Made by a program: the position numbers and the translations under genes. Below, one piece after another: positions 13,993-50,193 of a stretch of 50,193 nucleotides of DNA. The notes under the pieces were generated by a model. It was given only the letters and a program-made list of their open reading frames with translations, ran no database searches and was not told the DNA's origin. The stretch's first letter is position 1. Each line of letters opens with the position of its first letter. The stretch covers positions 1 to 50,193 of IMG/VR virus record IMGVR_UViG_2585427746_000005; one strand, written 5' to 3'. The DNA is from a virus. Taxonomy: Duplodnaviria > Heunggongvirae > Uroviricota > Caudoviricetes.

Positions 13993-14033
13993 ATAATCAG
14001 AATCAAGTCGAACAAAACAGCATGAGTTAAGAA

Positions 14034-23344: not shown

Positions 23345-23356
23345 TTTCTTATAAAA

Positions 23357-23387
23357 GATGGTGTCATCATATAATGACGACACCATC
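23357..23387. terminator. Hairpin between convergent Q and cargo operon (putative bidirectional terminator)
   Basis: GATGGTGTC ... GACACCATC 9-bp stem (extendable to 13 bp with one mismatch); U-rich tract follows on the minus strand. Confidence 0.5.
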
Positions 23388-23391
23388 GCAT

Positions 23392-24087
23392 CTAAAACCT
23401 ATCAATTTCCAAACATGAAATGGCATCATTGAAAATTGAAAAATGCTCATCAGGAACCACTGCAGAAGCCCCACTAGTTAATTCAAAACTAATCTTTGAA
23501 TCAAGGTAAAGCCCTCCAGCTTTTATTTTATCGAGCTTGAATTCGCCATCCCCAACAAAACTCTTCAAATCATGCAAAGCATCGCCACTAGAATTCAATT
23601 CCAAACATGCTCTTGTTTTGTCAGTAACAGGAAGATTTGATACCTTCACTTTTGAAATACCAAACACCTTTACGCCAAAATTTTCTCGAACGACCCTCAT
23701 GAAAGCTTTAAGATCAACGGTTAAATTTCCATAAGCAACATTTAATCCTTCAGCCTGAGATAAAAAATCGATGAAAGGTTTAACTGTTTTTGGCGGATTG
23801 TAAAAAGTTAACAGACATATCTTATTGCTGAGGGTTTGGATAGAAAAACTAATCTGATCAAATACAACCCTTTCGAATTCCAGCACCTCACCAAATGGAT
23901 CGGCAACCGGCTCTAAAACAACAGATTTTTTATTGAAAGTTGCAGCAATACCATTATGAATGGTTTCATACTTAGTAAAGCCAGCACCAATAGCATCAGA
24001 ATAAGGCGTGTTTTTGATAAAATCAAAGACAGCCTCAGGGCTGGTTCTGATTTTCAATCTCATCCACTTCAATCTTAATTGTGACAT
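23392..24087 (-). CDS. Cargo operon gene 3, hypothetical protein
   Basis: 231 aa from ATG with AAGGAG SD; AT-rich; no motif recognised. Confidence 0.7.
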   Translation of the reverse strand: MSQLRLKWMRLKIRTSPEAVFDFIKNTPYSDAIGAGFTKYETIHNGIAATFNKKSVVLEPVADPFGEVLEFERVVFDQISFSIQTLSNKICLLTFYNPPKTVKPFIDFLSQAEGLNVAYGNLTVDLKAFMRVVRENFGVKVFGISKVKVSNLPVTDKTRACLELNSSGDALHDLKSFVGDGEFKLDKIKAGGLYLDSKISFELTSGASAVVPDEHFSIFNDAISCLEIDRF

Positions 24088-24106
24088 AGCCACTCCTTAT
24101 GATGTA

Positions 24107-25171
24107 TTAGCTGATTTCCATTATAATAGAATAAGCTCTATTTTCAATTAGTTTATTGAATCGCTCAGCTTCTCTACCAGAGAGTTTTTGCGGCTTACTG
24201 AAATATTGTCCATTTGCCTTATACTTTCTGACTCCCTTAACCAAATATGAAAAATTAGTACAATTAAGAGGATCACCAAATTGGGCCTCAAGCTCAAATA
24301 TATCTGGATCAGCCAAGTTCTCCTTGACCTTCCATTTTATTTTCCAAATATAGAACCCTCTATCATAAAGATCACTTAATTCATCAGATTTAAGCACCCC
24401 CTCCCCCTTAAGTGATGCCCTAGACACGTGCACCCCAGTTTCGGTGTTTCCATCTTCAGCCTCAATAGTTTCAGGCTTAGGGTGATATACATAAGCATCA
24501 GTAACATCCAGTAACTCATAACCATCAAGTGTACGGATTAATCTATCGAAGAATAAAGTTCTAACATCAGCAGATGTATTGTGAGAGAGAGAAATTTCGT
24601 TTAATTTTAAATCAAGGTTACTATCATCCGCTTGCTCGTCCTGAATAGCGCTGATGTGCCCAAGTAAGAGTCCCTCGTAATCTTCAAGGTTTTCATTATC
24701 TGGACGACGGATACTGTAACCATCATCAAGAGGCTCAATTTCAATTAACGCCTCTTTATTAATAGCCTGTTTGAAATCACTTTTACCATAATTAGTTGAA
24801 AGATACCTGATATTAATAAGAACTCGAGGCCCATCTACGATTATTTTACAATAATCATCCTGATCGGTAATTTCTTTCTTAAGTTTTTCTGCGGCATCTA
24901 TAATACCTTTCTTATCTATACCAGTCTCAATTCTTACACATGTAAATTTTTCGGTCCTTGTCTGGCCACCTAAAAGGGTTGCAATTTTTTGATGCTCGTA
25001 ATAATCATGAGTCATTCGAGAATAGTTTCTTGCCAATTCTTTTCGAGGTGTTTTTTTACATATTATTGTCCCCCTCTCTAAGAAAAGATCTTGAATTTCA
25101 TTTAGAGTAATTTGCTTTTGGTTTAAAGCATCATATAAAGCTTTATCAGTTACGCTGTGAATATTTTTCAT
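24107..25171 (-). CDS. Cargo operon gene 2, hypothetical protein
   Basis: 354 aa from ATG (MKNIHSV...) with GGGAG SD; ATGA overlap with gene 1 stop; no motif recognised. Confidence 0.7.
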   Translation of the reverse strand: MKNIHSVTDKALYDALNQKQITLNEIQDLFLERGTIICKKTPRKELARNYSRMTHDYYEHQKIATLLGGQTRTEKFTCVRIETGIDKKGIIDAAEKLKKEITDQDDYCKIIVDGPRVLINIRYLSTNYGKSDFKQAINKEALIEIEPLDDGYSIRRPDNENLEDYEGLLLGHISAIQDEQADDSNLDLKLNEISLSHNTSADVRTLFFDRLIRTLDGYELLDVTDAYVYHPKPETIEAEDGNTETGVHVSRASLKGEGVLKSDELSDLYDRGFYIWKIKWKVKENLADPDIFELEAQFGDPLNCTNFSYLVKGVRKYKANGQYFSKPQKLSGREAERFNKLIENRAYSIIMEIS

Positions 25172-26232
25172 TTCGGCTCCCAAGAAATAACTTCTGCAGA
25201 GAAGAATTCTTTTACTGTAGACACAACTTTAACGTCTAAATCTTCAAGCCTCTTTTTAGCTTCTTCATCTAACCCATACTCATGTGCATATTTTTCAACT
25301 CCACGTTGAAAGTGTGAGAGAATCCTCTCATCTTTTTCTCGATAAGCCAGCCTTATCCTAATTTTATTTATACCATCAAGAATTTGATAATTTGACAAAA
25401 TATCTAACAAATAAAAAAATTCATTGTCGCTATTACCTTTTTTGTTGTAATACACAACAAACCCTTCTGGATAAACCTCCTCCTCTATACCTTTAGCTCT
25501 ATTATATTTATGAACAGCGCCATGTTTGATAATCATGAAAGGTGATGACAAGACTTCTATAGTAGCTGGAAGATATTTTTCAGTCACAGCAACCTTATGA
25601 AAAGTCAATTGAGGGTAATAGAATCCATATTCTTCATCAGGAAACTCTTTCTTAGCAATCAAATCATTCATATCATTCGTAATTGCCAACATATAATTAA
25701 TCAAAAATGGATCGATTATATGAATTTGCTGACCTGAAGATAAAGGAATCTTTTCTAAATTGACAGCCTTATCCCTTCTTCCTTTAGTAGGTTTAGGAGG
25801 ATTAAAAAAATCATAAAAATCATGCTGCAACTGATTATCATGATTAAAAACAAACAACAAACCTCGAACTTCACAGTCGATTTGAGAAAAATTATACTTT
25901 TCTGACCACTCAGGACTATACCGAGCACATTCAATAGTTTTTGCTAATGACTCCAGTGCAGATTCTATTTTTGACGCATTTATTGAACCTGCTTTATAAC
26001 TTTTTAAATCAGTATTTAAATAAATGACCTTGTTTAAATATGGATCTTTATAACTAAAAACAACATCTACAGGATGCGTATGCTTCTGTTTCTTACCTTC
26101 GGGCTTATGTTTAGCCTCATCATCACAAAGGAAATCTCGGTCGCAGGGGCCATGCTGCTGCCACTTAAATCGACTCAGTAGATCCTCAGATATGCGTTTT
26201 GCCAAATCTTCAATAGGGCCGTTCTCTGCCAT
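25168..26232 (-). CDS. Cargo operon gene 1, hypothetical protein (possible PD-(D/E)xK-like motif)
   Basis: 354-aa ORF, ATG with AAGGAA SD; HPVDVVF...IYLNTDLKSYK could be a D...(D/E)xK nuclease core but this is unverified. Confidence 0.7.
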   Translation of the reverse strand: MAENGPIEDLAKRISEDLLSRFKWQQHGPCDRDFLCDDEAKHKPEGKKQKHTHPVDVVFSYKDPYLNKVIYLNTDLKSYKAGSINASKIESALESLAKTIECARYSPEWSEKYNFSQIDCEVRGLLFVFNHDNQLQHDFYDFFNPPKPTKGRRDKAVNLEKIPLSSGQQIHIIDPFLINYMLAITNDMNDLIAKKEFPDEEYGFYYPQLTFHKVAVTEKYLPATIEVLSSPFMIIKHGAVHKYNRAKGIEEEVYPEGFVVYYNKKGNSDNEFFYLLDILSNYQILDGINKIRIRLAYREKDERILSHFQRGVEKYAHEYGLDEEAKKRLEDLDVKVVSTVKEFFSAEVISWEPK

Positions 26233-33940: not shown

Positions 33941-34969
33941 ATGACCATCAGAAAGCAGCCAAACGGAAAATGGTTGTGTGAATGCTACCCGAACGGGCGA
34001 GACGGCAAGCGTGTGCGCAAACAATTTGCGACGAAAGGCGAGGCCATAGCATTCGAAAACTTCACCATGGATGAAGTAAACAAAAAGCCATGGCTTGGTG
34101 AGAAGGAAGATCGTCGGCGCTTGTCAGAAGTAATTGAGCAATGGCACTCACTCTACGGGCAGACGCTTGCAGATCCCAAACGCCTGATGGCGAAACTTAA
34201 AATTATCTGTAATGGTCTGGGCGATCCCATCGCTTCAGAGCTGACCGCCGGTGACTTTACGAAATACCGCGAAGCACGGTTAAAAGGTGAGGTGCGAAAT
34301 GAAGATGGCGCGCTTATGTCACCAGTTAAGCCTCGCACGGTAAACCTTGAACAACGCAACCTATCATCCGTGTTTGGCACACTGAAAAAGTTGGGCCACT
34401 GGTCAGCACCCAACCCACTCGCCGGTTTGCCAACATTTAAAATCGCAGAAGGTGAACTGGCGTTCCTGACACCGGAAGAAATTAAACGCCTGCTGGATGC
34501 CTGCGCTGATTCTCAAAGCCCCAGCCTGCTGATGATTGCAAAAATATGCCTGGCAACTGGTGCACGCTGGAGTGAAGCCGAAAATCTGCAGGGCCATCAG
34601 TTATCGAAATACCGGATCACCTATACCAAGACTAAGGGCAAGAAAAACCGTACCGTGCCGATATCTCAGGATCTGTATGATGAACTTCCCAAGAACAGAG
34701 GGAAGTTATTCACCCCGTGCAGAAAAGCTTTTGAGCGTGCAGTAAAACGGGCAGGTATTGAGCTGCCTGAAGGCCAATGCACTCACGTGCTGCGTCATAC
34801 GTTCGCCAGTTATTTTATGATGAATGGCGGAAACATACTGGTATTAAGAGATATTCTGGGCCATGCCGATATAAAAATGACGATGATTTATGCACATTTT
34901 GCACCTGATCATCTAGAGGATGCAGTAACAAAAAACCCTTTACATGGATTAAAATGGACCTCACCATGA
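33941..34969 (+). CDS. int: Tyrosine integrase (P2/186 Int-like)
   Basis: 342 aa with C-terminal ...HVLRHTFASYFMMNGG...LGHADIKMTMIYAHF (R..H..Y catalytic signature). Confidence 0.9.
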   Translation: MTIRKQPNGKWLCECYPNGRDGKRVRKQFATKGEAIAFENFTMDEVNKKPWLGEKEDRRRLSEVIEQWHSLYGQTLADPKRLMAKLKIICNGLGDPIASELTAGDFTKYREARLKGEVRNEDGALMSPVKPRTVNLEQRNLSSVFGTLKKLGHWSAPNPLAGLPTFKIAEGELAFLTPEEIKRLLDACADSQSPSLLMIAKICLATGARWSEAENLQGHQLSKYRITYTKTKGKKNRTVPISQDLYDELPKNRGKLFTPCRKAFERAVKRAGIELPEGQCTHVLRHTFASYFMMNGGNILVLRDILGHADIKMTMIYAHFAPDHLEDAVTKNPLHGLKWTSP

Positions 34970-35985
34970 TTCTAGAATTAATAACTAGCAATATAAAAAA
35001 ACCAGAAATCTCTATCTTATTAATAGCTCTGTATTTAATTTACTTATTTATAGAATATACAAAAAATAAAAATAACAGTTATTTTGAAATGACTGAGGAA
35101 AGACTAACAAAACAAAAACTATTCAAACAATCAATAAGAATACCTGTTATTTCATCTTTATATTTTGGTGTCTTCGCATGGGTGGGACACTCCCCTCAAT
35201 TTGATGCTACAGGATTTAAAAACTTCATTGAAATAAGCAAGTTGCCTATTGCTCTTCTGTCTCTTTCGATACCATTTGTAGCCATAGTTGCTAACATTCA
35301 CAGAACAATACAAACCGAGAATCAAATTAGAAAAACACAACAACAGATAGATTTAGTAACCGAGAAAAACCGCAGTGATGCTTACTACGCTCACCTAAAA
35401 AATTATTCTGATATATTTAAAACACTGCCATCATTTACCCTCTCTCGCCGTGACAATACAACCTTTGAAAAAGGTACTGTTAAATTATCTGTGGATCATA
35501 CATATTCATTATATAAAAAAATATTCACAAAATCCTCAATCTCTGCTGGATATAACAGCGAGGTTGATAAAAAATTCCTTAGACAACTAGAAAACATATA
35601 CACTAGCATCGGGAATGCAATAATAAGAAACAATGAAATTTACCCAAGTCAAGTGAGCATATCTAATTTAGAGAACATTGAAGCGCTAGTGGTATTTTTG
35701 TGTAGAGAACTAGGTGTCAATTATGAACGAGAAGTTAACAAATTCGATATATTTGACCCAATTTCAAATTTAGGAATAGAAACATCATTTTCAGATGAAA
35801 AAGAGATCAAAGAAATGCTACGAGGCTTAAGGGACATATTGATATCTCTTTACATGCTAATTGATCAAAATACAATTATTTTTCAAGGCAATGCCAATAG
35901 CGGCGATTTTTTAGCTAATTATGCTTACGACCCAGATAATTTGATTTTTAAAGATATCTTACCTATAGATTCTCAAGGTAAATAA
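34954..35985 (+). CDS. Cargo: predicted multi-pass membrane protein, function unknown
   Basis: 343-aa AT-rich ORF with three hydrophobic segments near the N-terminus; sits between int and attR. Confidence 0.65.
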   Translation: MDLTMILELITSNIKKPEISILLIALYLIYLFIEYTKNKNNSYFEMTEERLTKQKLFKQSIRIPVISSLYFGVFAWVGHSPQFDATGFKNFIEISKLPIALLSLSIPFVAIVANIHRTIQTENQIRKTQQQIDLVTEKNRSDAYYAHLKNYSDIFKTLPSFTLSRRDNTTFEKGTVKLSVDHTYSLYKKIFTKSSISAGYNSEVDKKFLRQLENIYTSIGNAIIRNNEIYPSQVSISNLENIEALVVFLCRELGVNYEREVNKFDIFDPISNLGIETSFSDEKEIKEMLRGLRDILISLYMLIDQNTIIFQGNANSGDFLANYAYDPDNLIFKDILPIDSQGK

Positions 35986-36144: not shown

Positions 36145-36180
36145 ATTTTTGATATATTGAAGTTCAGTGAAGTCTATCAA

Positions 36181-36212
36181 GCCCGCATGGAACCAGCCTT
36201 GCGGGCTTTTTT
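36181..36212 (+). terminator. Rho-independent terminator downstream of the displaced ssrA 3' end
   Basis: GCCCGCA ... TGCGGGC stem followed by TTTTTT. Confidence 0.55.
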
Positions 36213-36310
36213 ACGTCTATAGTAGTCTACCGAGAATTGCTAGAATCTACTCGTTATGGCACCCTTTTTGGGACCCAACACAAAGGGTCCAAAACATGAG
36301 GGTCCCAAAC

Positions 36311-37540
36311 ATGGCAAAAATCGCTAAGAAGCTCACTGACACTGAAATCAAAAGCACCAAACCTGCCGAGAAAGAGGTTAACCTTTTTGACGGCGATGGT
36401 TTGCTCCTGCGAATCGCCCCCTTAGCGAAGGGAGGAAAGAAAAATTGGTATTTCAGATATGCAGTGCCTGTGACCAAAAAGCGAACTAAGGTGAGCTTAG
36501 GAACCTATCCTCACCTTACACTTGCGAAGGCACGAGCTTTACGTGATGAGTACTTGTCGTTGCTTGCAAATGGTATAGACCCACAAGTTCATAACACCCA
36601 CAAAGCCAATGCCCTTAAGGATGCAACGGAACATACATTTCAAGCAGTAGCCAAGAAGTGGCTTGATGAGAAAGTCAAAACGTCAGGCATCTCCCAGGAT
36701 CATGCTAACGACATCTGGCGAAGCCTAGAGAGAAATATCTTTCCAACGTTGGGTGATACCCCCATTAAGGAGATTCGCCCTAAAATGCTTAAACAGCATT
36801 TAGACCCCATAGAAAAACGAGGTGTCCTTGAAACACTTCGCCGCGTCATATCCCGCCTGAATGAAATTTTCCGCTATGCAGCAACAGAAGAACTCATAGA
36901 ATTCAATCCGGCTGACAACCTGGGGCAACGGTTCAGCAAGCCAAAAAAACAGAATATGCCAGCATTACCCCCTTCCGAACTCCCCCGCTTCCTGGTTGCT
37001 CTAAACAATGCTTCTATCCGTTTAGAAACAAGGCTACTGATTGAGTGGCAACTTCTCACATGGGTTCGCCCTGGTGAAGCTGTTCGCACAAGATGGTCAG
37101 ATATTGATATAGAAACCAGCATGTGGAACATCCCGGCGGAGTTTATGAAAATGAAGAAGCCTCACAAAGTTCCACTGAGCAAAGAATCTTTGCGAGTCTT
37201 GGATTCAATGAAAGCCATCAGCGGGCATAGAGAGTGGGTTTTTCCCAGTATCAAAGCTCCACTCAATCACATGCATGAACAAACAGCTAATGCGGCTATA
37301 ATCCGTATGGGCTTCGGAGGTGAGCTTGTAGCTCATGGTATGCGATCAATCGCTAGAACGGCGGCTGAGGAGTGTGGCAAGTTTAGAACTGATGTCTTAG
37401 AAGCCGCCCTTGCCCACTCGAAAAAAGATGAAATAATTGCAGCCTACAATCGTGCAGAGTATCTCACAGAACGTGTGGTTCTCATGCAATGGTGGAGTGA
37501 CTATGTTTCGTCTCAAAAATACAAAGTTATTGCCGCATAA
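36311..37540 (+). CDS. P4-type tyrosine integrase (IntA-like)
   Basis: Start moved to ATG MAKIAKKLTDTEIKSTKP...; N-terminal arm-binding-like segment and C-terminal catalytic domain. Confidence 0.9.
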   Translation: MAKIAKKLTDTEIKSTKPAEKEVNLFDGDGLLLRIAPLAKGGKKNWYFRYAVPVTKKRTKVSLGTYPHLTLAKARALRDEYLSLLANGIDPQVHNTHKANALKDATEHTFQAVAKKWLDEKVKTSGISQDHANDIWRSLERNIFPTLGDTPIKEIRPKMLKQHLDPIEKRGVLETLRRVISRLNEIFRYAATEELIEFNPADNLGQRFSKPKKQNMPALPPSELPRFLVALNNASIRLETRLLIEWQLLTWVRPGEAVRTRWSDIDIETSMWNIPAEFMKMKKPHKVPLSKESLRVLDSMKAISGHREWVFPSIKAPLNHMHEQTANAAIIRMGFGGELVAHGMRSIARTAAEECGKFRTDVLEAALAHSKKDEIIAAYNRAEYLTERVVLMQWWSDYVSSQKYKVIAA

Positions 37541-37822
37541 CTCTTCCATGATGGGTTAACTATCTTGATTTATTTGAAGAATTAATGATCACACCATTAA
37601 CCTATGTGGACTAAGCATAGCCATTTACAAATGGGTACCTTGAGGCCACATAACGAAAGCTGTCGGTCATATCAGCTAAATAATTCACATCTCTTCTCGA
37701 TTATCATACACCTCGAAGAACTACCAAATTCGCTCTAATCAATGATAAAACAGTTGAATTCGGTTAAAATTTGATCAATTTTATCCTCTACATTGTATTG
37801 AATCATCCATGAGGTTTTGTGC

Positions 37823-39379
37823 ATGGCTAGCGGAAATGAAAAAAATCATAGAGTTAGGGTCGCACAGTACTTGAGGATGTCTACCGACCATCAGCAATAT
37901 TCTTTACATAATCAGTCTGAATATATCAAAGATTATGCTGAAAAGAACAATATGGAAATCGCTTATACCTACGATGATGCAGGTAAGAGCGGAGTCAGTA
38001 TCGTAGGCAGGCATTCTTTGCAGCAGTTACTTAGCGATGTAGAACAAAAGAAAATAGATATACAGGCTGTATTATTTTATGATGTGAGCCGTTTTGGTCG
38101 TTTTCAAAATAGTGATGAAGCTGCATATTATTCCTTTCTATTTGAAAGAAATGGTGTAGATCTTATATATTGTTCCGAACCTATACCCACTAAAGATTTC
38201 CCTTTAGAGTCCTCTGTTATACTGAATATAAAAAGATCAAGTGCTGCATATCACAGCAGGAATCTATCTGAAAAGGTATTTATAGGGCAAGTAAATTTAA
38301 TAAAGCTTGGTTATCATCAAGGCGGTATGGCTGGTTATGGGCTGAGACGTCTTTTAGTAGACGAAAATGGCATAGCTAAAGAAATATTGAATTTCCGCAA
38401 AAGAAAGAGTATTCAAACAGATAGGGTAATATTAATTCCGGGACCAAAAAATGAAATAAAAATTGTAAATAGAATCTATGATCTCTTTATAGATAGTAAC
38501 GTCCCAGAATTCATTATTGCTGAGAGATTAAATGAACAGAGCATACCTGCAGAAAATGGAACATCATGGACTCGTGCAAAAATACATCAAATTTTGACAA
38601 ATGAAAAATATATTGGAAACAACATATATAACAAAACCTCATCTAAACTAAAAAGTAAGCTTGTAAAAAACCCCAAACATGAATGGATTAGATGTGACAA
38701 GGCATATAAACCAATTATTTCAAAGAAAAAATATAATAAAGCTCAAGAAATAATTCAGCTCCGATCCATTCATTTGACTAATGAAGATCTATTAGAAAAG
38801 CTAAAAGAAAAATTAGAATCTAATGGAAAACTATCAGGCTTTATCATTGATGAAGATGATACAGGCCCTTCATCTTCTGTTTATAGAACCCGATTTGGTG
38901 GTCTTTTAAGAGCATATACTTTGATTGGTTATAAGCCAGAACATGATTACAGCTATCTCCAAATAAATGAAGCACTAAGATCATTTTACTCAGAGATAAT
39001 TGAGGATTTTAAGGGCGAAATATTAAAAAGTAACTGTCATATAGACGAGTATAAATATTACCCAATGCTTTACATCAATGATGAGTTTTTAATTTCCGTC
39101 CTTGTTACTAAATGCATACATATGAAATCAGGTAAACTTAGATGGAAAGTCCGGTTTGATAACTCACAGAAAGCAGACATAACAATTGTTATACGAATGA
39201 ATTCACAAAATATTTCACCTCTTGATTTTTATATCATACCAAAGATTGAAAACGAATATAGTAAAATGTGTATGATGGAAACAAACAACATTCGGTTAGA
39301 TCTCTATAGATTTGATAATCTTGATAAATTTCTACAAATTATTACTCGCATGAAAGTGAGGGAACTATATGCTGCCTGA
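37823..39379 (+). CDS. Large serine recombinase (resolvase-domain N-terminus)
   Basis: YLRMSTDHQ...GKSGVS...LLFYDVSRFGR resolvase motifs with a long C-terminal extension; ATG with GAGG SD. Confidence 0.85.
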   Translation: MASGNEKNHRVRVAQYLRMSTDHQQYSLHNQSEYIKDYAEKNNMEIAYTYDDAGKSGVSIVGRHSLQQLLSDVEQKKIDIQAVLFYDVSRFGRFQNSDEAAYYSFLFERNGVDLIYCSEPIPTKDFPLESSVILNIKRSSAAYHSRNLSEKVFIGQVNLIKLGYHQGGMAGYGLRRLLVDENGIAKEILNFRKRKSIQTDRVILIPGPKNEIKIVNRIYDLFIDSNVPEFIIAERLNEQSIPAENGTSWTRAKIHQILTNEKYIGNNIYNKTSSKLKSKLVKNPKHEWIRCDKAYKPIISKKKYNKAQEIIQLRSIHLTNEDLLEKLKEKLESNGKLSGFIIDEDDTGPSSSVYRTRFGGLLRAYTLIGYKPEHDYSYLQINEALRSFYSEIIEDFKGEILKSNCHIDEYKYYPMLYINDEFLISVLVTKCIHMKSGKLRWKVRFDNSQKADITIVIRMNSQNISPLDFYIIPKIENEYSKMCMMETNNIRLDLYRFDNLDKFLQIITRMKVRELYAA

Positions 39380-40265
39380 AAAAAATGAATTCCCAATAAT
39401 TCAAATTGAGATTGCAAAAATAAAATTTCTTAACCCACGAACAAGAAATAAGGTAGTGCATGAAGAAATAAAGGAAAGCATAAAAAAAAGAGGATTAAGC
39501 AAGCCTATAAGCGTAAGAGCTATTGATGAAGACGATTTCAAATATGCTTTAATTTGTGGTCAAGGGAGAATAGAGGCTCTTGTTGCATTAGGTGAAACTA
39601 TTATTCCAGCAATTATAAGAGATGTATCAGAAGAAGATGCTTACGTTATGAGTTTAGTTGAAAACATTGCAAGGAGAAGACCACGTTCTAATGAGTTATT
39701 ACAGGTGATTAAAGACATGAAAATCAGAGGACTTTCAGACTCCGAAATAAGTGAGATTACTGGATATTCATCGAACTGGGTGAGCAGTATTAATATGCTT
39801 CTTGATAAGGGAGAGCATAAACTTCTCTCAGCAGTCGAACGGGGTAATTTGCCTCTGTATCTCGCAGTGCAATTTGCAAGATGTGAAACTGAGGAAGCAC
39901 AAGATATTCTTACCGAAGCATATGATAAAAAATTAATAAAAAGTCGGGACATTATAAAGATAAAATACATTCTAAATCAAAGAACAGTTGGGAATAAAGG
40001 TGCAAAAGCAGCCGGATTTTATTATCACAAACCATCAAAAAGGATGACTGCAGAGGAGTTGATTGAGCTTTATGAAAATAGTATCGCTGAACATAAATCT
40101 GTTTATAACAACTCGAAATTTATAAAAACCAATCTACTAATAATAAATGAGATTTTTAACATCATAATGATGAATAAAAGCTTTCAAAATATACTTGAAC
40201 AAGAGAATCTTTCAGAACTACCATCTCAGATATTAAACCCAGTAAACAAAGAGGTATCAAAATGA
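39369..40265 (+). CDS. ParB/Srx-fold N-terminal domain protein
   Basis: ICGQGRIEAL resembles the ParB GxxR box; 11-nt overlap with the recombinase gene. Confidence 0.65.
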   Translation: MLPEKNEFPIIQIEIAKIKFLNPRTRNKVVHEEIKESIKKRGLSKPISVRAIDEDDFKYALICGQGRIEALVALGETIIPAIIRDVSEEDAYVMSLVENIARRRPRSNELLQVIKDMKIRGLSDSEISEITGYSSNWVSSINMLLDKGEHKLLSAVERGNLPLYLAVQFARCETEEAQDILTEAYDKKLIKSRDIIKIKYILNQRTVGNKGAKAAGFYYHKPSKRMTAEELIELYENSIAEHKSVYNNSKFIKTNLLIINEIFNIIMMNKSFQNILEQENLSELPSQILNPVNKEVSK

Positions 40266-41158
40266 TTCAGATACGTTTTGGCAAAAATTTTATTTACCTG
40301 GAAACTAATAAGTTAATTCCATCTAAGGAATTATTAGAAAACGTAAAGCGAAGCCATAAATATCATCAAATAGTTACCTCTATCGAAAGCTTGGGTATTA
40401 TTGAACCAATAATAGTATTCTATGACAAAGATAAAGATGTCACTAAGATACTTGATGGCCATTTAAGGGTTGAGGCTTTAAAAGACTTAGATATAGAAAA
40501 AGCTCCATGTATACTTTCGAGCATAGATGATGCTTTCACTCCTAACAAACAAGTGAATCATATAAATGTAGTTGAAGAACATAGAATGATAATTAAGTCT
40601 CTGGCAAAAGTATCAATTGAAAAACTTAGTGCTGCTTTGGGCATATCTGTTGATGCCATAAAAGATAAAGCTAATGTGATGAACGGCATAGATCCAAGTG
40701 TAATTGCGAAACTTTCTGATAAACCTATACCTAAGGCTACATTTGACGTTTTGAGGAAAATGAAGCCAATTCGTCAAATTGAAGCAGTCGGTACAATGAT
40801 TAATTTTGATAATTATAGTAAAAAATTTGCAATGAGCATCTTGGATGCAACACCGTCATCGATGATAGTAAATAAAGGGAAAAACACTCCCTATAAAAAG
40901 GACATAAAAAAAACCATACTTCGTCTGGAACAAGAAATGGCAACAACTTCGGAAGAAACGAAAAAACTTCAAACCGAGTATGGTTCAGATATGTTGAAAT
41001 TCGTTATAATCCAGTCATATATTAATAAATTACTTGGCAACTCTAAAGTTCTTCATTGGTTCTTAGAAAACGAGGTTGATTATCTTAATGAGTTAAAAAG
41101 AATTTCTAGAATAAATTCTTTGGATGATAAGACTCTTACTGAAAACAGCCAGTCATAG
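40262..41158 (+). CDS. ParB-like nuclease domain protein
   Basis: KILDGHLRVEALKDL matches the DGHHR-type ParB-like nuclease motif; ATGA overlap with the preceding gene. Confidence 0.65.
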   Translation: MIQIRFGKNFIYLETNKLIPSKELLENVKRSHKYHQIVTSIESLGIIEPIIVFYDKDKDVTKILDGHLRVEALKDLDIEKAPCILSSIDDAFTPNKQVNHINVVEEHRMIIKSLAKVSIEKLSAALGISVDAIKDKANVMNGIDPSVIAKLSDKPIPKATFDVLRKMKPIRQIEAVGTMINFDNYSKKFAMSILDATPSSMIVNKGKNTPYKKDIKKTILRLEQEMATTSEETKKLQTEYGSDMLKFVIIQSYINKLLGNSKVLHWFLENEVDYLNELKRISRINSLDDKTLTENSQS

Positions 41159-42210: not shown

Positions 42211-43116
42211 TTATTTAGATGCTAAAATAGTATTTTTATTGAATTTTTCATCAGCATCTGTAAGCTTTTTCATTATTAAAGCAGGGGCTATATCCTGAAG
42301 CTCCGTAGATTTTATGAAAAAATAATTACAAAGGTAAATTATATTATTAAGATTAATTGGTATATCAATATTATAATCTAACATTAACGATAACAAACGA
42401 TCTCTGTCAATTCTATAAAACTTTTTACCAAGCTCTTTCTCATTAATTATTGAAATTATCTTTTCATCAAGCTTATCGTCCATTCTCAATCTTAATTTAT
42501 TTCTTAGCATAGCGGACCATGCGCTTGACTTATAATTTCTATATGCTAAATCCTCAAATAACTTCATTATTCCCCAATCAGATGTTTCCAAAGAGGCGTA
42601 AATTCCATTCAGCGCGCGACTAAGGTCATTATGCTCAACCCAATCCTCTTTGCACTTATAGCGTAGATCATGCTCAACTTCATGCCATCCTTCAGATAAA
42701 ATAGTTCTAAATTGGACTTCAAAAGTAGTATCAATATAAGAATATTTCTTTAATAAGACACTATCATTTGATAATACTTCTGGTAACTTAAAGACGTAAT
42801 TGCATCGAGTTGCCGCAAAGAGATTAGCCGTGGTTTCGTCTACGGTTTTAGATTCAATTTCGAATAATTTCTCCAGTGTTTTTTGAGCAATAAATAAATC
42901 ATCAGGAAAATATAATATTATCCTAACCCCAAATAAGTCTTGAATTTTTTTACCATCCTCTGAGTATTTATTAGGCTCTTTTTCATATTTCTTAATTATT
43001 GAGCTTTCTGATTTTGTCCTCGAAAAAAAACGATAAAGTAATCCAATACGATTAAGTTCATCTTCTATATCTTTTTGCAAACTTTGAATAATTCGCAATT
43101 CATTCCCGTTATACAT
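42211..43116 (-). CDS. RelA/SpoT-domain nucleotidyltransferase (small alarmone synthetase / toxSAS-like)
   Basis: DLFGVRIILYF and FEVQFRTILSEGWHEVEHDLRYK match the synthetase-domain motifs; start overlaps the upstream stop (TGATG). Confidence 0.8.
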   Translation of the reverse strand: MYNGNELRIIQSLQKDIEDELNRIGLLYRFFSRTKSESSIIKKYEKEPNKYSEDGKKIQDLFGVRIILYFPDDLFIAQKTLEKLFEIESKTVDETTANLFAATRCNYVFKLPEVLSNDSVLLKKYSYIDTTFEVQFRTILSEGWHEVEHDLRYKCKEDWVEHNDLSRALNGIYASLETSDWGIMKLFEDLAYRNYKSSAWSAMLRNKLRLRMDDKLDEKIISIINEKELGKKFYRIDRDRLLSLMLDYNIDIPINLNNIIYLCNYFFIKSTELQDIAPALIMKKLTDADEKFNKNTILASK

Positions 43117-45221
43117 CAGAAATTCCTCCCAAGAATTGCTTTAATCTCTGATATTCTTGCCATGTTAAGTTCAAGGAACGAACGCTTGTCTGGCGTAAGT
43201 AAAAGACCGTCTTTCCTCAATTTATCTAAAGAATGGAGTATTTCACTTAACTGAAATTGATTGTTGTTAGAACATAAGCCTTTTATAGGCCGATGCTTAT
43301 GATAGCTAACACTCCCTCTGGGACAGAACTTCTCTAAGATGTAAATATCACAATCTGTAATATCGTGATCATTTTCACTGTTTATCTCGACAGATTTTTT
43401 ATTAATAGCATCATTGTCACATTCACATCCCAAAAAATAAATATCTTCCCTACCACTTAATTCGTTAAAACTACAATCTATAAAAGAACAGTTCACGAAT
43501 GTAACGTTTTTATAATTACCACAGGTAAATATGCTGCTAAAAAACGAACAATCAACAAAGATAGTATCATGTATTATATTTATATCGCCTAAAGAAAGTT
43601 TTGATATAGACAATTGCTCAACACTATCATTTTTTAAATCTAATGGAACTTTTCCTATAAGCAAATGACTATAAAGGATTTTATCATTACCTGACATAAA
43701 ATATAAAGCAAACTCTAAGCTATGCCAAAGTAATTCTTTTTCATCATCGATCCTCGGCATATAAGATTGCACTGCTGGTTCTATAAAACGTTTATCACCA
43801 ATCCATTCATTTGACTTATCATTAATAATATTTTCAGAAACAAAATTACCAAGAACAAATTCATTAACAAATCCAATACCTTGGTTTTCTGAGCCTGACC
43901 GATCTAATAGAGCATGCGATGCTAATTTATTAACTAATTCGTCAGTAGTTGGTCTTTCATCTACAGTATAAAGCTTTCTTGTAGCCTCCAAGAGTTGTTG
44001 ATTCTTTTCAGTTATGACTAACGATATATACTCTCTAGACTCAGATGTGTAGTTACCCTCGACCATGTCGTCAGCTATTATTTTTAGTATAGTATATTGA
44101 TCTTCAATAGACATTAATAAATCTTGTCTTTTTCTTTCTCGCTCAAGCATTGAATCAAAATACTTCCTCACTATAGTTGTTGGGTCGCTTATAACTTTAT
44201 TAAAGTCGGTGTCGTCGATGCATCTTAGAAATGATAGCAGTACAGGGTTTGATAATTTGTTAAGAGGAAATCCTGTCGATGAAATTTCATCTAAACGTTG
44301 ACCTGGAAGCCAGTCTTCAATTTGTGGTTCATGAATTCTTATTCTTATCACATCAAAATCTTCTTGATGTGATGCTATCCACTGATGGAATTCATCTCCG
44401 TCAAATATAGCTGTTCTTCGAGTTGTCAAAACCACTTTTGCACTATCAGTTAGAAGCTCACTTATTGTTTCCAGCATTGGCTCTGTTTTTTCATAATTAT
44501 TTTCAATTCCGTTTGTACTTTCATGCAATAGTTCATCAAACCCGTCAAGTATAACTGGTACATTTCCTGCTCTTATTTCATTCCTTACTAAGGCTGAGCT
44601 TAACAAAGGAAAACTTCTATCAATTTCATCTAATAGTACATACCTGAATATTTTTGCTTGCCTATTCCTTGATAGTTCTGAAAATAATGGTATTTTCCCT
44701 ATATTGTTAACTATAATCTCCCTCAATAATTCATACGCCGTGCAAGTCTTTCCAAAACCGGCTGCAGCCTCAATCAAAAACAGAATTGGACGCCTATGTT
44801 GTATTCTCTCTAATATTTCCGTAACAACATTAGCTTCGCCAATAACACCATTTAAGTAATATTTTGAATTTATGTAGGAATAAGTTGCAGTAGGTGAGTG
44901 AATTTTTACAATTGAATCTGTGAAAGTATTATAATCTTTAATCAACCTTTCTTTAGTTGAATCGACGCTAAAGAAGCCATTAAATAATTCCTTATGTGCT
45001 TCTTCATAAGACTGATATTTTTTAATTTGACATGCATAACCTAACTGCCTATATTCTTCAAAGGTTTGATTTACATTAACCTCATTATTTAGTGGAAGTA
45101 TGTCCGCGTTATGGTAGTGCCCTGTTTTAATAGAATATACAGCAATACTTTCGTTACCTGTATTTTCTTCAGTAAAACCAAACCTTTTATATATCTCTGT
45201 AAGTTTGCTTTTTCGTAACAT
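43116..45221 (-). CDS. NACHT/STAND-like P-loop NTPase with C-terminal pentapeptide repeats
   Basis: Walker A AAAGFGKT, NACHT-type Walker B VILDGFDEL, C-terminal FVDCSFFSSIFTCGNYKNVTFVNCSFIDCSF repeats; start moved to ATG with AGGAGG SD. Confidence 0.8.
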   Translation of the reverse strand: MLRKSKLTEIYKRFGFTEENTGNESIAVYSIKTGHYHNADILPLNNEVNVNQTFEEYRQLGYACQIKKYQSYEEAHKELFNGFFSVDSTKERLIKDYNTFTDSIVKIHSPTATYSYINSKYYLNGVIGEANVVTEILERIQHRRPILFLIEAAAGFGKTCTAYELLREIIVNNIGKIPLFSELSRNRQAKIFRYVLLDEIDRSFPLLSSALVRNEIRAGNVPVILDGFDELLHESTNGIENNYEKTEPMLETISELLTDSAKVVLTTRRTAIFDGDEFHQWIASHQEDFDVIRIRIHEPQIEDWLPGQRLDEISSTGFPLNKLSNPVLLSFLRCIDDTDFNKVISDPTTIVRKYFDSMLERERKRQDLLMSIEDQYTILKIIADDMVEGNYTSESREYISLVITEKNQQLLEATRKLYTVDERPTTDELVNKLASHALLDRSGSENQGIGFVNEFVLGNFVSENIINDKSNEWIGDKRFIEPAVQSYMPRIDDEKELLWHSLEFALYFMSGNDKILYSHLLIGKVPLDLKNDSVEQLSISKLSLGDINIIHDTIFVDCSFFSSIFTCGNYKNVTFVNCSFIDCSFNELSGREDIYFLGCECDNDAINKKSVEINSENDHDITDCDIYILEKFCPRGSVSYHKHRPIKGLCSNNNQFQLSEILHSLDKLRKDGLLLTPDKRSFLELNMARISEIKAILGRNF

Positions 45222-45298
45222 TAAACTCACCTCCTGATATTTTTCGCAATGATGCTATAGTCGCTGTATGAACTTTTAATATAATATTACAAAAACCA

Positions 45299-45945: not shown

Positions 45946-46332
45946 GTGCTACAAATCTTATCGAAGCCAAACATCAGCTACGTTTCCCTAGATGTTAAAA
46001 TCAGTAGTCGCAGGGCCAATGCTAATGATCCACACATTGACCGTGAAGGGGCCTTTCAGGTGGGTACGACTGCATTCCAAGTGACCACCGCACCTATGGA
46101 GAAATTGATTTCACACTGTATCAAAATCAAACGCGCAGGCTACAGGCCGGTCATCCTAACTCTTGAAAGCAAGGTCATTGCAGCACGCCAGCTGGCTGAT
46201 AACGTTGGTATGTCTGAACTGATAGCCATCCAGGCAGCTGAAACTTTCATTGGTAACAATATTGAAGAGATTGCTATTTATGACGGCGATAAAATCCGTG
46301 AGAGTCTCGCAAGATTGATACATCTCTTATGA
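45946..46332 (+). CDS. Hypothetical protein or gene remnant
   Basis: 128-aa ORF with GTG start and no clear SD, after about 600 bp of ORF-free sequence. Confidence 0.3.
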   Translation: MLQILSKPNISYVSLDVKISSRRANANDPHIDREGAFQVGTTAFQVTTAPMEKLISHCIKIKRAGYRPVILTLESKVIAARQLADNVGMSELIAIQAAETFIGNNIEEIAIYDGDKIRESLARLIHLL

Positions 46333-46913
46333 TTGATGAGCCTCTTGGATCGTTAACTTACTGACCGACTCCTGAAATACATAGAGCTCAGTAAGCTTAA
46401 CGAGTCGCTTTTTTCCACCATACCTAAGCCCCAAAACTAAAGCACTACGGCTTGATTGGGCTGGCGTAAGTCTGCACACCGAGCCTTTTGCACTATAAAT
46501 TTCTCAGAATATATAACCAATATGTCAGTAAAGGTTTAAAGTGAATGATTCGTTTTGGCAGGATACTTACGATTATCACAACACTATCACATATTGTGTC
46601 TCACACACAAAGTTGAAAATCAAAACAGAAGTAAAAGATATAATATTCCCCTGCTAAAATACGATTCACTTCAAACATTTAATATTAATGGGATATATTT
46701 CCCCCTAAGCAATGGGGAAAAACGCCCATCAATCAACCATGAAATAAAAATAGCACTTTTTGCAAACTATGAATTTATTTATATAAAACATCACATTAAA
46801 TTAGTTTATTCAAAAGAAAACGCTTGCTTATTTTTTATTATTAAAAATAAATTTGATTTTTATTTATTTGATAATATACATTCATTTCATCAAAATAATA
46901 AAGGAGAATAAAA

Positions 46914-47354
46914 ATGAAAAAACAAAACTATTCAACCCTGACAAGTTACCTATCTAAAACAAAAAAGAATACAGATCTCTACCGTCTGTATAACCCTCAC
47001 TTTTCAATATTCTGTAAAAATAGCATTGAAGATCATGTTTTTTATCTTAATTATTTTTCCAGACATATGGTGACGGAAAGAAATATTCTGACCATATTTG
47101 CTATCCATACCTTTTTCTCTTATAGCATGGAAAAAAAAGACACCATAAAAGCTTTTACCCGTTTTCTTAAAGAGGAGAATCACGATACTTTCTATCAGTC
47201 ATTTTCTTTTCGTGGCTGCAATATCATTTACACAAACAAAAAAGGCGAAGTGAAAGAGATCTCATGGTTTTCTTTTTCACGGATCTATGACGAGATCATT
47301 AAGATAAAAGAATATGAATACAACAATAATACCTGGCACAAAACGACCGCTTAA
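46914..47354 (+). CDS. Hypothetical protein (first gene of ankyrin operon)
   Basis: 146-aa AT-rich ORF, ATG with AAAGGAG SD. Confidence 0.6.
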   Translation: MKKQNYSTLTSYLSKTKKNTDLYRLYNPHFSIFCKNSIEDHVFYLNYFSRHMVTERNILTIFAIHTFFSYSMEKKDTIKAFTRFLKEENHDTFYQSFSFRGCNIIYTNKKGEVKEISWFSFSRIYDEIIKIKEYEYNNNTWHKTTA

Positions 47355-47368
47355 AAAGGAGAACGCCC

Positions 47369-48322
47369 ATGAGTAACTATACAGAAGATAATTTATTTGA
47401 CAGCAAAACTAAAAAAGACGTCCAGAATTGCATTGCTGCAGGCATTGACATTAACACACTTAATGAACACGGTGAAAACGCCCTTTTCGGTTGCGACAGT
47501 ATCGGGGCTTTAAAAGCCATGATTGAAGCAGGCATAGCGCTGAACCATACAGATTGTTATGGTAATAATGCCCTGTTTAGCAGAAAAAGCCCACGTGCAG
47601 TGAGGCTATTGATAAAGTCAGGTATTAACGTTCACCACAAAAATAATAAAGGCCAGTCCTGTCTTCACTGGCAGCGCTACGCCATAGATTGTGCGGAACT
47701 CCTCATAAACGCGGGCATTGATATCCACAGCACAGATAACGAAGGACAAACGCTTCTTTATGACCTCCTCGATCATGACGTCTTTGATTACTGGGTAAAT
47801 AAAGGGTGTGACATAAACCACAGAGATTATGGTGGCAAAGCGGTGCTGGATCTTCCGACTGACAACGAGTGGTGGATATATGATTTCAGTATTAATGCCC
47901 TCAAACGCCATGTTGATAGAATAGACAGCACGCCAGTATTATTTAAACATGTTTCAACTGAGGCTTTGCCTCTAATTGCTTTGCTTCATGAAAAAGGGCG
48001 TAATATCCTTATCGCTGAACACTGTTCCTTCGCATTATATGTCAAAAACATGAAGTACTTCTTTACCTCACTGAAAAAATATACCGATATCAGTCATGTT
48101 CAGTTTTATAATTGTTATCATGATAAACATATTGGTATCTACACCGGCATAGAAAGTGTGAAATGGTTCATTCGAAATGGTATCCGAATGGACGACGATA
48201 TACTCAGACAGCGTTCTGACTCCGATAAGATTTTTTCTTATATCGCAGCAAGAGAGAAAAAAGACCTGTTAAAAGAAATGAAGCCAGAGATCCCCCGTTC
48301 ATCTGTACGAAAAAGACTCTAA
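47369..48322 (+). CDS. Ankyrin-repeat protein
   Basis: At least four N-terminal repeats of the G-x-(N/T)-(A/L)-L...L(I/L)..G(I/A)..N pattern; ATG with AAGGAG SD. Confidence 0.75.
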   Translation: MSNYTEDNLFDSKTKKDVQNCIAAGIDINTLNEHGENALFGCDSIGALKAMIEAGIALNHTDCYGNNALFSRKSPRAVRLLIKSGINVHHKNNKGQSCLHWQRYAIDCAELLINAGIDIHSTDNEGQTLLYDLLDHDVFDYWVNKGCDINHRDYGGKAVLDLPTDNEWWIYDFSINALKRHVDRIDSTPVLFKHVSTEALPLIALLHEKGRNILIAEHCSFALYVKNMKYFFTSLKKYTDISHVQFYNCYHDKHIGIYTGIESVKWFIRNGIRMDDDILRQRSDSDKIFSYIAAREKKDLLKEMKPEIPRSSVRKRL

Positions 48323-48396: not shown

Positions 48397-48430
48397 GGGT
48401 ATACTATTTGTCAAATGGTATACCTTTTTT
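48397..48430 (+). terminator. Putative terminator after the ankyrin operon
   Basis: GGGTATAC ... GTATACC stem followed by TTTTTT. Confidence 0.4.
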
Positions 48431-48523: not shown

Positions 48524-48931
48524 ATGAACAGTGACATGAGTAATGATGATGATATAACCAGAGTATCAAAACGCGGTAAATTCCATACTGACAAATTTCC
48601 TGAGAATGAAATACGACATCACTGCATCAGTGTCAGATTAAATGAAGAAGAATTAATTATTCTCGACAGTAAAAGAGGTCAGTATAAAAAAGGAGAATGG
48701 CTCAGGATGGCTTCCCTGAATAAACTCCCGCCGGTTCTGCCAGAAATCAATCGTGAAGCATGGATAAAACTTGGCAGCCTTTCACAGGATTTAAACTACC
48801 TGTTGAGTCATCTCGACAGCAAAAGCCCTGACAGCGAACTGACCCGTACAGAACTCTTCGCCCTGCGCAGACAAATCAAAACTCTCAGGGATCACCTTAT
48901 TCCCTCAACATTTCTGGAGTCAGACCCATGA
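48524..48931 (+). CDS. MobC-like relaxosome accessory protein
   Basis: 135-aa protein with RHH-like segment and LGSLSQDLNYLLSHL motif; ATGA overlap with the relaxase gene. Confidence 0.65.
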   Translation: MNSDMSNDDDITRVSKRGKFHTDKFPENEIRHHCISVRLNEEELIILDSKRGQYKKGEWLRMASLNKLPPVLPEINREAWIKLGSLSQDLNYLLSHLDSKSPDSELTRTELFALRRQIKTLRDHLIPSTFLESDP

Positions 48932-50193
48932 AAGGCATGCAGAAAATAAAAAGGGGTAAACAATTCACAGGTGTGGTTATTTATAGCCTGAAGTCAGGTT
49001 CTCACCACAAAATCACGCCTTATGTCATCGGTGGCAACATGACGGGTAGCACTGCTGCTGAGCTTATAAGTGAATTTGAAGGCACCCGACTGCTGCGTCC
49101 CGATGTCGCCAAACCTGTCTGGCATAATTCACTTCGCCTGCCAAAGGGTGAGAAACTGTCAAACAGACAGTGGGCAGCATTCGCTGACGATTATATGGCC
49201 CGAATGGGCTTCACTGACACCCATCTTCGCTGCTATATCATGCACGATGATCCGGATGGGCAGCATATTCATATCATTGCAAGTCGTATTAACATGGTCG
49301 GTGGAAAACTGTACCTGGGGAAAAATGAAAATCTTATCGGCACACGGATTATCAGTGAGCTGGAGAGAGTACACGGCCTCACCGAAACTACGGGTGTAAC
49401 CGGCAGTAGCCGCCAGGATAAAAGGAAGCCTTCCCGTAATGAACTGATGATGGCAGAACGCACAGCAGCTCCCTGCCCTAAGTCACTGTTGCAGGCCCTG
49501 CTCGACAATGCATTAACACACCATCCCGATTTACTAACCTTTGTTCGCTTACTGGAACAGGAAGGAGTGACCTGCAAACCCAATATCGCCACTACGGGTA
49601 AAATGAGTGGATTTTCATTTCAATACCAGGGTATTGCCTTTAAAGCATCTCAGTTGGGTAAAAAATATGGCTGGTCTTCCCTGCAAGCACTGATTGATTT
49701 TACGCCTGAGCATCTGAGTTTACTGAAAGAAGCCCAGAGGCCAATAGAACCTACAACCGCGCCAGTGCCAGTGCCAGTGCCAGTGCCAGTGCCAGTGCCA
49801 GTGCCAGTGCCAGTGCCAGTGCCAGTGCCAGTGCCATCATGCGAGTCTGAAGAGCAGGCTGCAAACCGGGAAACGATTCTGGAGAAAATCCATCAGCTTG
49901 AAGAAAAAATTCGTCTGGAAAGACAACAGGAGACAGTGGGTATCATCCAGCTCAGGAGCAATCTGCACAATACAGCTCGTCAGATACCCCGCCAGCGTCG
50001 TCTGTATTCATGGCTTGTATTGCTCGTCCATATTGTGGCACTTCTCAGGCGCAGAGGCATGTCTCTGTTACATGCCACTGCACATCCTTTCCACCAAATC
50101 CTCCACCTACATATTCTGACACCCTGTCATCCCATGACAACAAATACCAATAAAGAACAATCATTTAAAAACAACAACCATCCTGCACCATAA
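48928..50193 (+). CDS. Mobilisation relaxase (MobA-like)
   Basis: Histidine triad IMHDDPDGQHIHIIASRIN; internal (PV)n linker; stop TAA at window end. Confidence 0.8.
   Translation: MKGMQKIKRGKQFTGVVIYSLKSGSHHKITPYVIGGNMTGSTAAELISEFEGTRLLRPDVAKPVWHNSLRLPKGEKLSNRQWAAFADDYMARMGFTDTHLRCYIMHDDPDGQHIHIIASRINMVGGKLYLGKNENLIGTRIISELERVHGLTETTGVTGSSRQDKRKPSRNELMMAERTAAPCPKSLLQALLDNALTHHPDLLTFVRLLEQEGVTCKPNIATTGKMSGFSFQYQGIAFKASQLGKKYGWSSLQALIDFTPEHLSLLKEAQRPIEPTTAPVPVPVPVPVPVPVPVPVPVPVPVPSCESEEQAANRETILEKIHQLEEKIRLERQQETVGIIQLRSNLHNTARQIPRQRRLYSWLVLLVHIVALLRRRGMSLLHATAHPFHQILHLHILTPCHPMTTNTNKEQSFKNNNHPAP
49762..49836 (+). repeat. Hexanucleotide tandem repeat (CCAGTG), about 12.5 copies, encoding (Pro-Val)n
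   Basis: Uninterrupted CCAGTG repeats inside the relaxase ORF, in frame. Confidence 0.9.

Follow-up and report, generated by a model that had tools for sequence, protein, structure and literature searches.

The leading-region genes that act in establishment or anti-defense include ArdA, ArdB/KlcA, ArdC, PsiB, SSB, and orphan methyltransferases (Samuel et al. 2024, PMC11541004). The relaxase is usually found within the lagging region, and in well-studied conjugative systems its operon enters last, while the leading-region genes lie across the origin of transfer (oriT) and have the transferred strand (T-strand) as their template; among the 300 most prevalent families, the leading-region anti-defense, methyltransferase, SSB, and toxin-antitoxin genes were all on the T-strand (PMC11541004). 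The same study lists a 10-member 'Ankyrin repeats' family among its 'Other unknown leading families' (Samuel et al., PMC11541004). In the linear plasmids of the pBSSB1 family, the majority of genes are of 'unknown function' (Hawkey et al. 2022, PMC9453081). Here, we describe two adjacent open reading frames, ORF-A and ORF-B (hereafter A and B), on a mobilizable island in IMG/VR virus record IMGVR_UViG_2585427746_000005. The whole stretch that was analyzed (50,193 nt) is called the window; coordinates are positions in it, and L-numbers (e.g., L015) designate comparison loci. The best explanation of A-B is an accessory operon in the backbone of an integrative mobilizable element (IME) of Enterobacteriaceae, which is neither cargo nor a toxin/antitoxin pair. 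To our knowledge, no ankyrin-based leading-region gene has been characterized.

A two-gene operon in the IME backbone

In a comparison of seven loci, similarity was at background upstream of position 46741, and from there on the promoter of A, A, B, the spacer, mobC, and the relaxase gene all aligned. The identity to seven other loci climbed from a background of 4-51% to 57-94% at 46741-46909. The cargo upstream of this point varied by locus: it consists of NACHT, RelA/SpoT, and restriction endonuclease (REase) genes in the window, of an ars operon in L015, and of an AAA_15 ATPase pair in L006. Since similarity begins abruptly at 46741 while the upstream cargo differs among loci, we conclude that A-B is part of the conserved IME backbone and is located at its boundary with the variable cargo. 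On the other side, B is directly followed by a MobC/NikA-like gene and a relaxase gene with a PF03432 domain, in agreement with the initial annotation, which had placed the pair on a mobilizable island. A and B are co-directional with mobC-relaxase, and the spacer between them has 201 nt and contains an inverted repeat. A scan of one genome per species of Enterobacteriaceae revealed the arrangement A-B-mobC-relaxase in 14 of 15 species loci, five of which contain a second B paralogue upstream of A.

The initial annotation had also described the two genes as an AT-rich operon with a strong Shine-Dalgarno (SD) sequence before each gene, and both points were confirmed. Its coordinates agree with ours (Table 1), and AAGGAG with a 7-nt spacing precedes the ATG of A as well as that of B. 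The genes are co-oriented, only 14 nt separate the stop codon of A from the start codon of B, and inspection of this gap revealed no terminator. The GC content is 0.32 for A and 0.40 for B; it is 0.31-0.39 in the island part of the window versus 0.50-0.61 in the prophage part. Dozens of full-length homologues were found for each gene, and the pairwise ratios of nonsynonymous to synonymous divergence (dN/dS; 0.07-0.46 for A and 0.16-0.72 for B) span the same range as those of the adjacent mob genes. Therefore, A and B are real genes under purifying selection.

The conserved module upstream of A contains a promoter-like site, TTGATA-17-CAAAAT, at 46868-46896. Its left boundary (46690-46771) is formed by a stem-loop (TTTCCCC...GGGGAAA) followed by the motif ATAGCACTTTTTGC, and the block ATAGCACTTTTTGC...AAGGAGAATAAAAATG is recognizable even in linear plasmids in which A is only 43% identical. 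At the equivalent position, the linear-plasmid homologue of A has a different stem-loop (CCCCGTTAATGGGG and a T-run). No RNA family was detected by an Rfam scan of the A-B region.

Two narrow, uncharacterized protein families

A is a basic protein (isoelectric point [pI] 9.3) with 19% aromatic residues and a predicted cytoplasmic location. Comparison with Pfam, NCBIfam, PADLOC, and PHROGs revealed no credible family; only sub-threshold matches were obtained, such as Pfam DUF817 (13.8 bits; cut-off, 25.9) and phrog_10612 (E = 0.023). The AlphaFold model of A (predicted local distance difference test [pLDDT] score, 81.6) consists of five helices, a three-stranded sheet, and two further helices, and it had no match with E < 0.1 when searched against viral structures with Foldseek. 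A, which had been introduced as an unknown protein, indeed belongs to an orphan family. Its N-terminal 28 residues are near-invariant at the protein level, with synonymous sites that vary freely.

The designation of the second gene as an ankyrin protein was borne out. In a profile search, residues ~45-155 of B scored above the Pfam gathering cut-offs for Ank_4 (37.4; cut-off, 22.7), Ank_2 (36.8; 27.3), and Ank (25.6; 21.1), and in the AlphaFold2 model (pLDDT, 91.3) helix pairs are stacked every 30-31 residues across residues 1-160. Foldseek yielded 343 matches in BFVD at E <= 0.001, and the named ones among the best 50 are mostly giant-virus and poxvirus ankyrin proteins. The ankyrin framework (G.NALF, LI..G..IN) is conserved, and hypervariable positions are found at the hairpin tips and where helix 1 ends; the nucleotide identity of the ankyrin part to L015 and L026 is 53-78%. 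Ankyrin proteins also exist in E. coli K-12 (ArpA, YahD), and rarity alone is a weak argument.

The remainder of B is private to the family. In the model, residues 161-250 form a helix (168-180) and three strands (190-195, 213-221, and 245-248) with helices between them. The C-terminus contains a long helix (285-304), followed by a disordered basic tail that ends with RKRL (pI 10.2; pLDDT of the last 20 residues, 52-67). Residues 251-305 are the most conserved segment, with a mean entropy of 0.73 versus 1.15-1.19 in the rest of B. The long helix shows the motif VKWFIRNGIRMDDDILRQR..DKIF.YIA.REKK.L, and the tail motif (K/R)(K/R)R(L/I/M) is retained in 412-aa paralogues with 30% identity and missing from paralogues of 291-293 aa. 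When a profile of residues 158-317 was compared with 1.84 billion representative proteins, all 32 matches were members or fragments of the own family or generic ankyrin proteins, the latter covering only the degenerate repeat (residues ~250-285). On the basis of this search, we gave up the notion that the domain is a shuffled enzymatic one. A homology of the C-terminus to plasmid methylases, suggested by a weak match to PADLOC REase_MTase_IIG, was rejected as well (hhalign probability, 0.4%), and no sequence relative of the C-terminus was found in the PDB. For neither A nor B was a signal peptide or transmembrane segment predicted. We conclude that B is a true ankyrin-repeat protein whose C-terminal module is private, an architecture limited to roughly 80-100 sequence clusters of Enterobacteriaceae.

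Both families are confined to Enterobacteriaceae. The identical A-B segment is present in ~62 of 5,426 complete E. coli genomes, always on the chromosome, and at high identity it was not found in the plasmids of PLSDB. The host bacteria, which come from food, poultry, pigs, and humans, are commensal and environmental members of the Enterobacteriaceae. No homologue of A or B was detected in 50,697 phage records. The two genes also occur apart. Among the complete E. coli genomes, 159 contain A and 64 contain B, and in the commonest E. coli allele of A (P0010; 312 contigs), mobC-relaxase directly follows A and B is absent. Conversely, B paralogues of 291 and 412 aa were found with neither A nor a relaxase gene nearby. 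Two loci (L011, 209-5347; L014, 3356-9239) represent a minimal islet consisting of an integrase gene and two ankyrin genes for the 412-aa and 291-aa paralogues, and the 412-aa form is also located beside an OLD-TOPRIM/UvrD (Gabija-like) pair. A literature search retrieved no paper on the RefSeq accessions of A or B and none linking ankyrin with anti-restriction or conjugation. Both families are narrow and uncharacterized.

The alleles of A and B diverged long ago and form mosaics, although their flanks are near-identical. In the comparison of the window with L015, the synonymous divergence (dS) is 1.9 for A, 1.3 for B, and 0.08 for mobC, with breakpoints at the promoter of A and near residue ~250 of B. 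The approximate limits of the variable cassette are codon 30 of A and codon 250 of B; to its left lies the conserved upstream region of 170 nt, and to its right the conserved block of B C-terminus, spacer, and mobC. In L024, the central part of B is 91-98% identical to that of the window, while A and the N-terminus of B are ~70% identical, which shows that A alleles and central B recombine apart.

Homologues of A with 43% identity are located in small linear plasmids, where one to three small ORFs come next, and then two genes for 262-aa N6_Mtase proteins; this unit of A-like gene and methylases is sometimes repeated. In some phylogroups of the pBSSB1 type, the cluster reads ArdC ... RelE/HTH - 124 aa - Ank (236 aa) - A homologue - 58 aa - 254 aa - N6_Mtase - N6_Mtase. 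The 236-aa Ank protein, encoded immediately upstream of the A homologue, scored above the Pfam thresholds, is 26% identical to the repeats of B, and in hhalign showed a weak similarity (E = 0.001; probability, 21%) to the terminal repeat and helix of B. In other pBSSB1 phylogroups, the ankyrin gene (175-188 aa) is the first of an operon with type 4 pilin genes and without A. B-like ankyrin genes were detected in 36 PLSDB records of the pBSSB1 family (linear-plasmid loci: L037, 974-8075; L021, 632-4457; L043, 1746-4642; L044, 2765-6866), all of which are typed 'non-mobilizable'; among the records listed, these genes are mostly ~1-3 kb from the record end.

Candidate roles of A and B

Tentatively, we favor the view that A-B is an early-establishment or anti-defense module in which B binds a host protein, a role that we regard as possible and clearly short of probable. 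An early-establishment or counter-defense function is best supported because of the association with ArdC and orphan methylases, the restriction to mobile elements, and the mosaic diversification of the alleles. Signs of conflict-like evolution, namely, the high dS of A and B relative to mobC, the breakpoints, and the second B paralogues, were also counted in its favor, as were the position in the backbone, the conserved ankyrin framework with its hypervariable surface positions, the precedent of the 'Ankyrin repeats' family of Samuel et al., and the solubility of both proteins, neither of which has a signal peptide.

If oriT is located in the B-mobC spacer, the only plausible place for it, A-B and the relaxase gene would lie on opposite sides of oriT, with A-B transcribed toward the relaxase gene; this orientation would fit a relaxase operon that enters last. 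As leading-region genes, A and B would enter the recipient first and would help the element to establish itself. A is proposed to be a basic, possibly nucleic-acid-binding, general mobile-element protein. B may be a cytoplasmic adaptor, the variable ankyrin surface of which would bind, block, or redirect a variable protein of the host or of a competitor, e.g., a defense component, while the conserved C-terminal module would have a constant job. For this proposal, we infer the location of oriT, the direction of transfer, the binding target, the anti-defense or establishment effect, and an interaction between A and B; the data themselves show the operon, the ankyrin nature of B, the place in the backbone, purifying selection, the deep mosaic diversity of the alleles, and the recurrent vicinity of orphan methylases, ArdC, and further ankyrin genes. 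A bolder version, which we think quite unlikely, makes B the first ankyrin-based counter-defense or host-takeover protein of a bacterial conjugative element. It would be expressed first or be co-transferred via a helper type IV secretion system (T4SS) by means of the conserved C-terminal module and the (K/R)(K/R)RL tail, and its rapidly diversifying ankyrin surface would act as a natural designed-ankyrin-repeat-protein (DARPin)-like binder that sequesters an immunity protein of the recipient; A would then represent a new class of establishment factors common to IMEs and linear plasmids.

Several observations weigh against an establishment role, and four of them keep our confidence low. First, the candidate nick motifs are poorly conserved on either strand and do not fix the nick site or the nicked strand. 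In 12 loci, every spacer type has an inverted repeat and a T-rich run at the same place, and the sequence of the repeat is type-specific. In a search for a MOBP-like nick motif, the + strand yielded ATCCAG, located 3' of the repeat, which looked promising in two spacer types but is not conserved within type 1; TATCAG(A/G)T on the - strand is only partly conserved. Second, no Frpo-like structure was detected when single-stranded DNA (ssDNA) folds were calculated for the minus strand at 46560-46915 (z = -1.75) and for the B-mobC spacer (z = -0.88); such an Frpo/ssi-type ssDNA promoter is not universal among leading-region genes. Third, neither A nor B showed similarity to known anti-restriction, anti-CRISPR, or SOS-inhibitor proteins. 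Fourth, ~60% of the A-carrying E. coli genomes lack B, and B is therefore dispensable for the element. Furthermore, gene-wide positive selection was not found in A or B (dN/dS < 1), and any repeat protein would be expected to have hypervariable positions on its surface. Finally, the B paralogues in the integrase islet and beside the Gabija-like pair would fit a defense role equally well.

According to this latter explanation, which we consider doubtful, B is, with or without A, a defense gene directed against phages or mobile elements; its repeats would serve to recognize a protein of the invader, with the C-terminal alpha/beta domain acting as the effector. The surroundings are compatible with this: the island region is rich in such genes (NACHT with NA-iREase2, a RelA/SpoT-domain protein, an REase remnant), a dCTP deaminase is present in L001, and the 412-aa paralogue adjoins the Gabija-like pair of OLD-TOPRIM ATPase and UvrD helicase. 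The deep diversification of the alleles also speaks for this role. However, A-B is fixed at the edge of the backbone while the defense cargo upstream is swapped, and the other partners of A, orphan methylases and ArdC, are counter-defense genes. Moreover, the C-terminal domain of B has no recognizable catalytic motif or relative. The PADLOC candidate PDC-M72A matched B at 3.1e-8, but this match comprises the ankyrin repeats only (B residues 13-99 versus profile positions 274-366 of 392). B thus does not qualify as a member of PDC-M72, since the match is not full-length, and A matched nothing in PADLOC.

A regulatory function is, in our view, unlikely. A would be a DNA-binding (auto)regulator that acts at its own conserved upstream region, and B would be an adaptor that senses a helper plasmid or the state of the host, so that the pair would control excision or mobilization of the element.

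The initial annotation had suggested an effector/immunity or toxin/antitoxin-like pair and had made this conditional on the two genes being conserved together. The tight spacing, the co-transcription, the mobile element, and the joint occurrence in the species loci speak for such a pair, and the allele of A tends to be co-inherited with the N-terminal ~85 residues of B. Co-conservation was only half borne out. It held for the species loci, but A outnumbers B in E. coli, IMEs with A alone and B paralogues without A exist, and the alleles recombine. Since A occurs without B, B paralogues occur without A, A homologues are linked to methylases, and alleles are exchanged, obligate cognate pairing was not seen. 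In addition, no toxin, antitoxin, or immunity domain was found in Pfam, NCBIfam, or PADLOC at E <= 1, the gene order flips between Ank-A in plasmids and A-Ank here, and the central part of B has recombined separately from A. That genomes with A alone exist in nature already suggests that A-only strains are viable. We therefore regard the pair model as very improbable.

Equally improbable is a translocated effector acting on eukaryotic cells, with the ..P(K/V)RKRL tail as a nuclear-localization-like or secretion signal: many bacterial ankyrin proteins are effectors, the basic tail of B is conserved, and NCBIfam gave weak matches to Legionella AnkY and AnkH, but these cover the repeats only and are far below the cut-offs of 600 (AnkY/LegA9, 25.5 bits; AnkH/LegA3, 22.4 bits), B has no N-terminal secretion signal, and nothing else supports the secretion considered initially, the hosts are commensal and environmental Enterobacteriaceae, and no effector locus of a type III secretion system or T4SS is linked, the transfer genes nearby serving DNA mobilization only. 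The remaining probability falls to something else.

We rate A-B as an accessory or establishment module of a mobile element that consists of two uncharacterized families, a finding that is not in itself surprising. This family of IMEs is distributed widely among E. coli, Salmonella, Klebsiella, Citrobacter, and Enterobacter, where it carries swappable defense and resistance cargo, and A-B is its conserved accessory module closest to the presumed oriT. If A-B aids establishment or counters immunity, it would add two new anti-defense families, one of them an ankyrin binder, and would functionally link the IMEs with the linear plasmids of the pBSSB1 type, which are poorly understood. On megaplasmids of Enterobacteriaceae, ankyrin proteins and other alpha-solenoids are abundant and unexplained (bioRxiv 10.1101/2025.09.30.679422), and a function found for A-B could carry over to them. 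If A-B is merely a dispensable accessory pair, the finding is an ordinary one.

Island neighborhood and comparison with known systems

A P2-like prophage and the mobilizable island are inserted in tandem downstream of ssrA, at a locus of the CP4-57 type; in NZ_CP025903.1, ypjA is located beyond the island. The island encodes a P4-type tyrosine integrase, a serine recombinase, two ParB-like proteins, a RelA/SpoT-domain protein, a NACHT protein, an REase remnant, A, B, the MobC/NikA-like protein, and the relaxase (Table 1). In comparison with the NCBIfam models MobB, TraI_MobP, and MbpB, the relaxase was below all cut-offs. At 49740-49800 (relaxase residues ~272-304), it contains a (Pro-Val)12 tract, the length and sequence of which vary between loci, with identities down to 20-60%.

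Table 1. Positions of A, B, and other features in the window
Feature	Position	Strand	Description
tmRNA (ssrA)	698-1060		Rfam RF00023, 295.8 bits
P4-type integrase	36167-37540		Island integrase
Conserved upstream module of A	46741-46913	+	Promoter-like hexamers, 5' untranslated region, SD; left edge of conserved island backbone
ORF-A	46914-47354	+	ATG start, 146 aa; from ORF list and sequence
ORF-B	47369-48322	+	ATG start, 317 aa; from ORF list and sequence
B residues 1-160	47369-47848	+	About five short (30-31 aa) ankyrin repeats; variable part
B residues 161-250	47849-48118	+	Small alpha/beta unit in which a helix precedes beta-alpha-beta-alpha-beta; Cys219 invariant; not assignable to a known family
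B residues 251-317	48119-48322	+	Most conserved part: degenerate ankyrin-like repeat, long helix, disordered basic tail, stop
Inverted repeat, 13 bp, and T-run	48397-48425		Terminator-like end of A-B operon; candidate oriT repeat in B-mobC spacer
MobC/NikA-like relaxosome accessory gene	48524-48931	+	Weak NikA-like Pfam match (0.042); always directly upstream of relaxase gene
Relaxase, MOBP/MOBQ-type nuclease domain	48928-50193 (runs to window end)	+	PF03432, 1.6e-22; RefSeq annotation, relaxase

Downstream of the P4-type integrase gene, a large serine recombinase and two ParB/RepB-like proteins are encoded in one operon (37817-41158). On the - strand at 42211-45230, the gene for a 704-aa NACHT protein (NA-iREase2, NACHT, and pentapeptide repeats) overlaps by 1 nt with that for a 301-aa RelA/SpoT-domain protein. 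This pair is a candidate two-gene defense operon; in NZ_CP025903.1, the RelA/SpoT gene is shrunk to 264 nt. Directly upstream of the promoter region of A, a decayed C-terminal fragment of a DUF4928/type II restriction endonuclease was detected at 45946-46332 (PADLOC REase_II, 2e-51). Beside the P2-type integrase gene, the window contains a 343-aa ORF without a Pfam domain (34954-35985), at a place where NZ_CP025903.1 has an anti-phage dCTP deaminase gene, which resembles an exchange of cargo at a hotspot of the prophage. Within the prophage, the GC content of which is 0.55-0.6, dips to 0.32-0.40 at 14001-15000 and 23001-26000 are probably accessory-gene hotspots.

Among the known systems, type II toxin-antitoxin modules resemble A-B in being adjacent, co-transcribed pairs of small genes on mobile elements. 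They differ from A-B in that the pairing of A and B is not obligate, toxin and antitoxin domains are absent, and the second gene encodes a large (317 aa) repeat protein. With other bacterial ankyrin proteins, such as the Dot/Icm Ank effectors of Legionella and Coxiella, AnkB of P. aeruginosa, ArpA and YahD of E. coli, and the ANKp of sponge-symbiont phages, B shares the repeats, the conserved framework, the variable surface, and presumably protein binding. Unlike them, B has repeats of 30-31 aa, G.NALF instead of G.TPLH, and a private C-terminal unit with helix and basic tail; it also has no secretion signal, and its gene is located beside a relaxase gene.

The Ank genes of the pBSSB1 family are similar to B in their ankyrin part (26-37% identity) and, in some phylogroups, in being adjacent to an A homologue. 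In contrast to B, their products have 175-236 aa and neither the alpha/beta insert nor the basic tail, and the order is Ank-A in these plasmids versus A-Ank in the IME. The leading-region genes, finally, differ from A-B in sequence and fold, A-B having no similarity to the known members and no detected Frpo-like promoter. Nevertheless, A-B resembles them in its co-directionality with the relaxase gene and in its restriction to mobile elements, and it would also resemble them in its location if the presumed oriT separates it from that gene; to this can be added the strong SD sequences of both genes and, in the linear plasmids, the neighboring ArdC and orphan N6-methylase genes.

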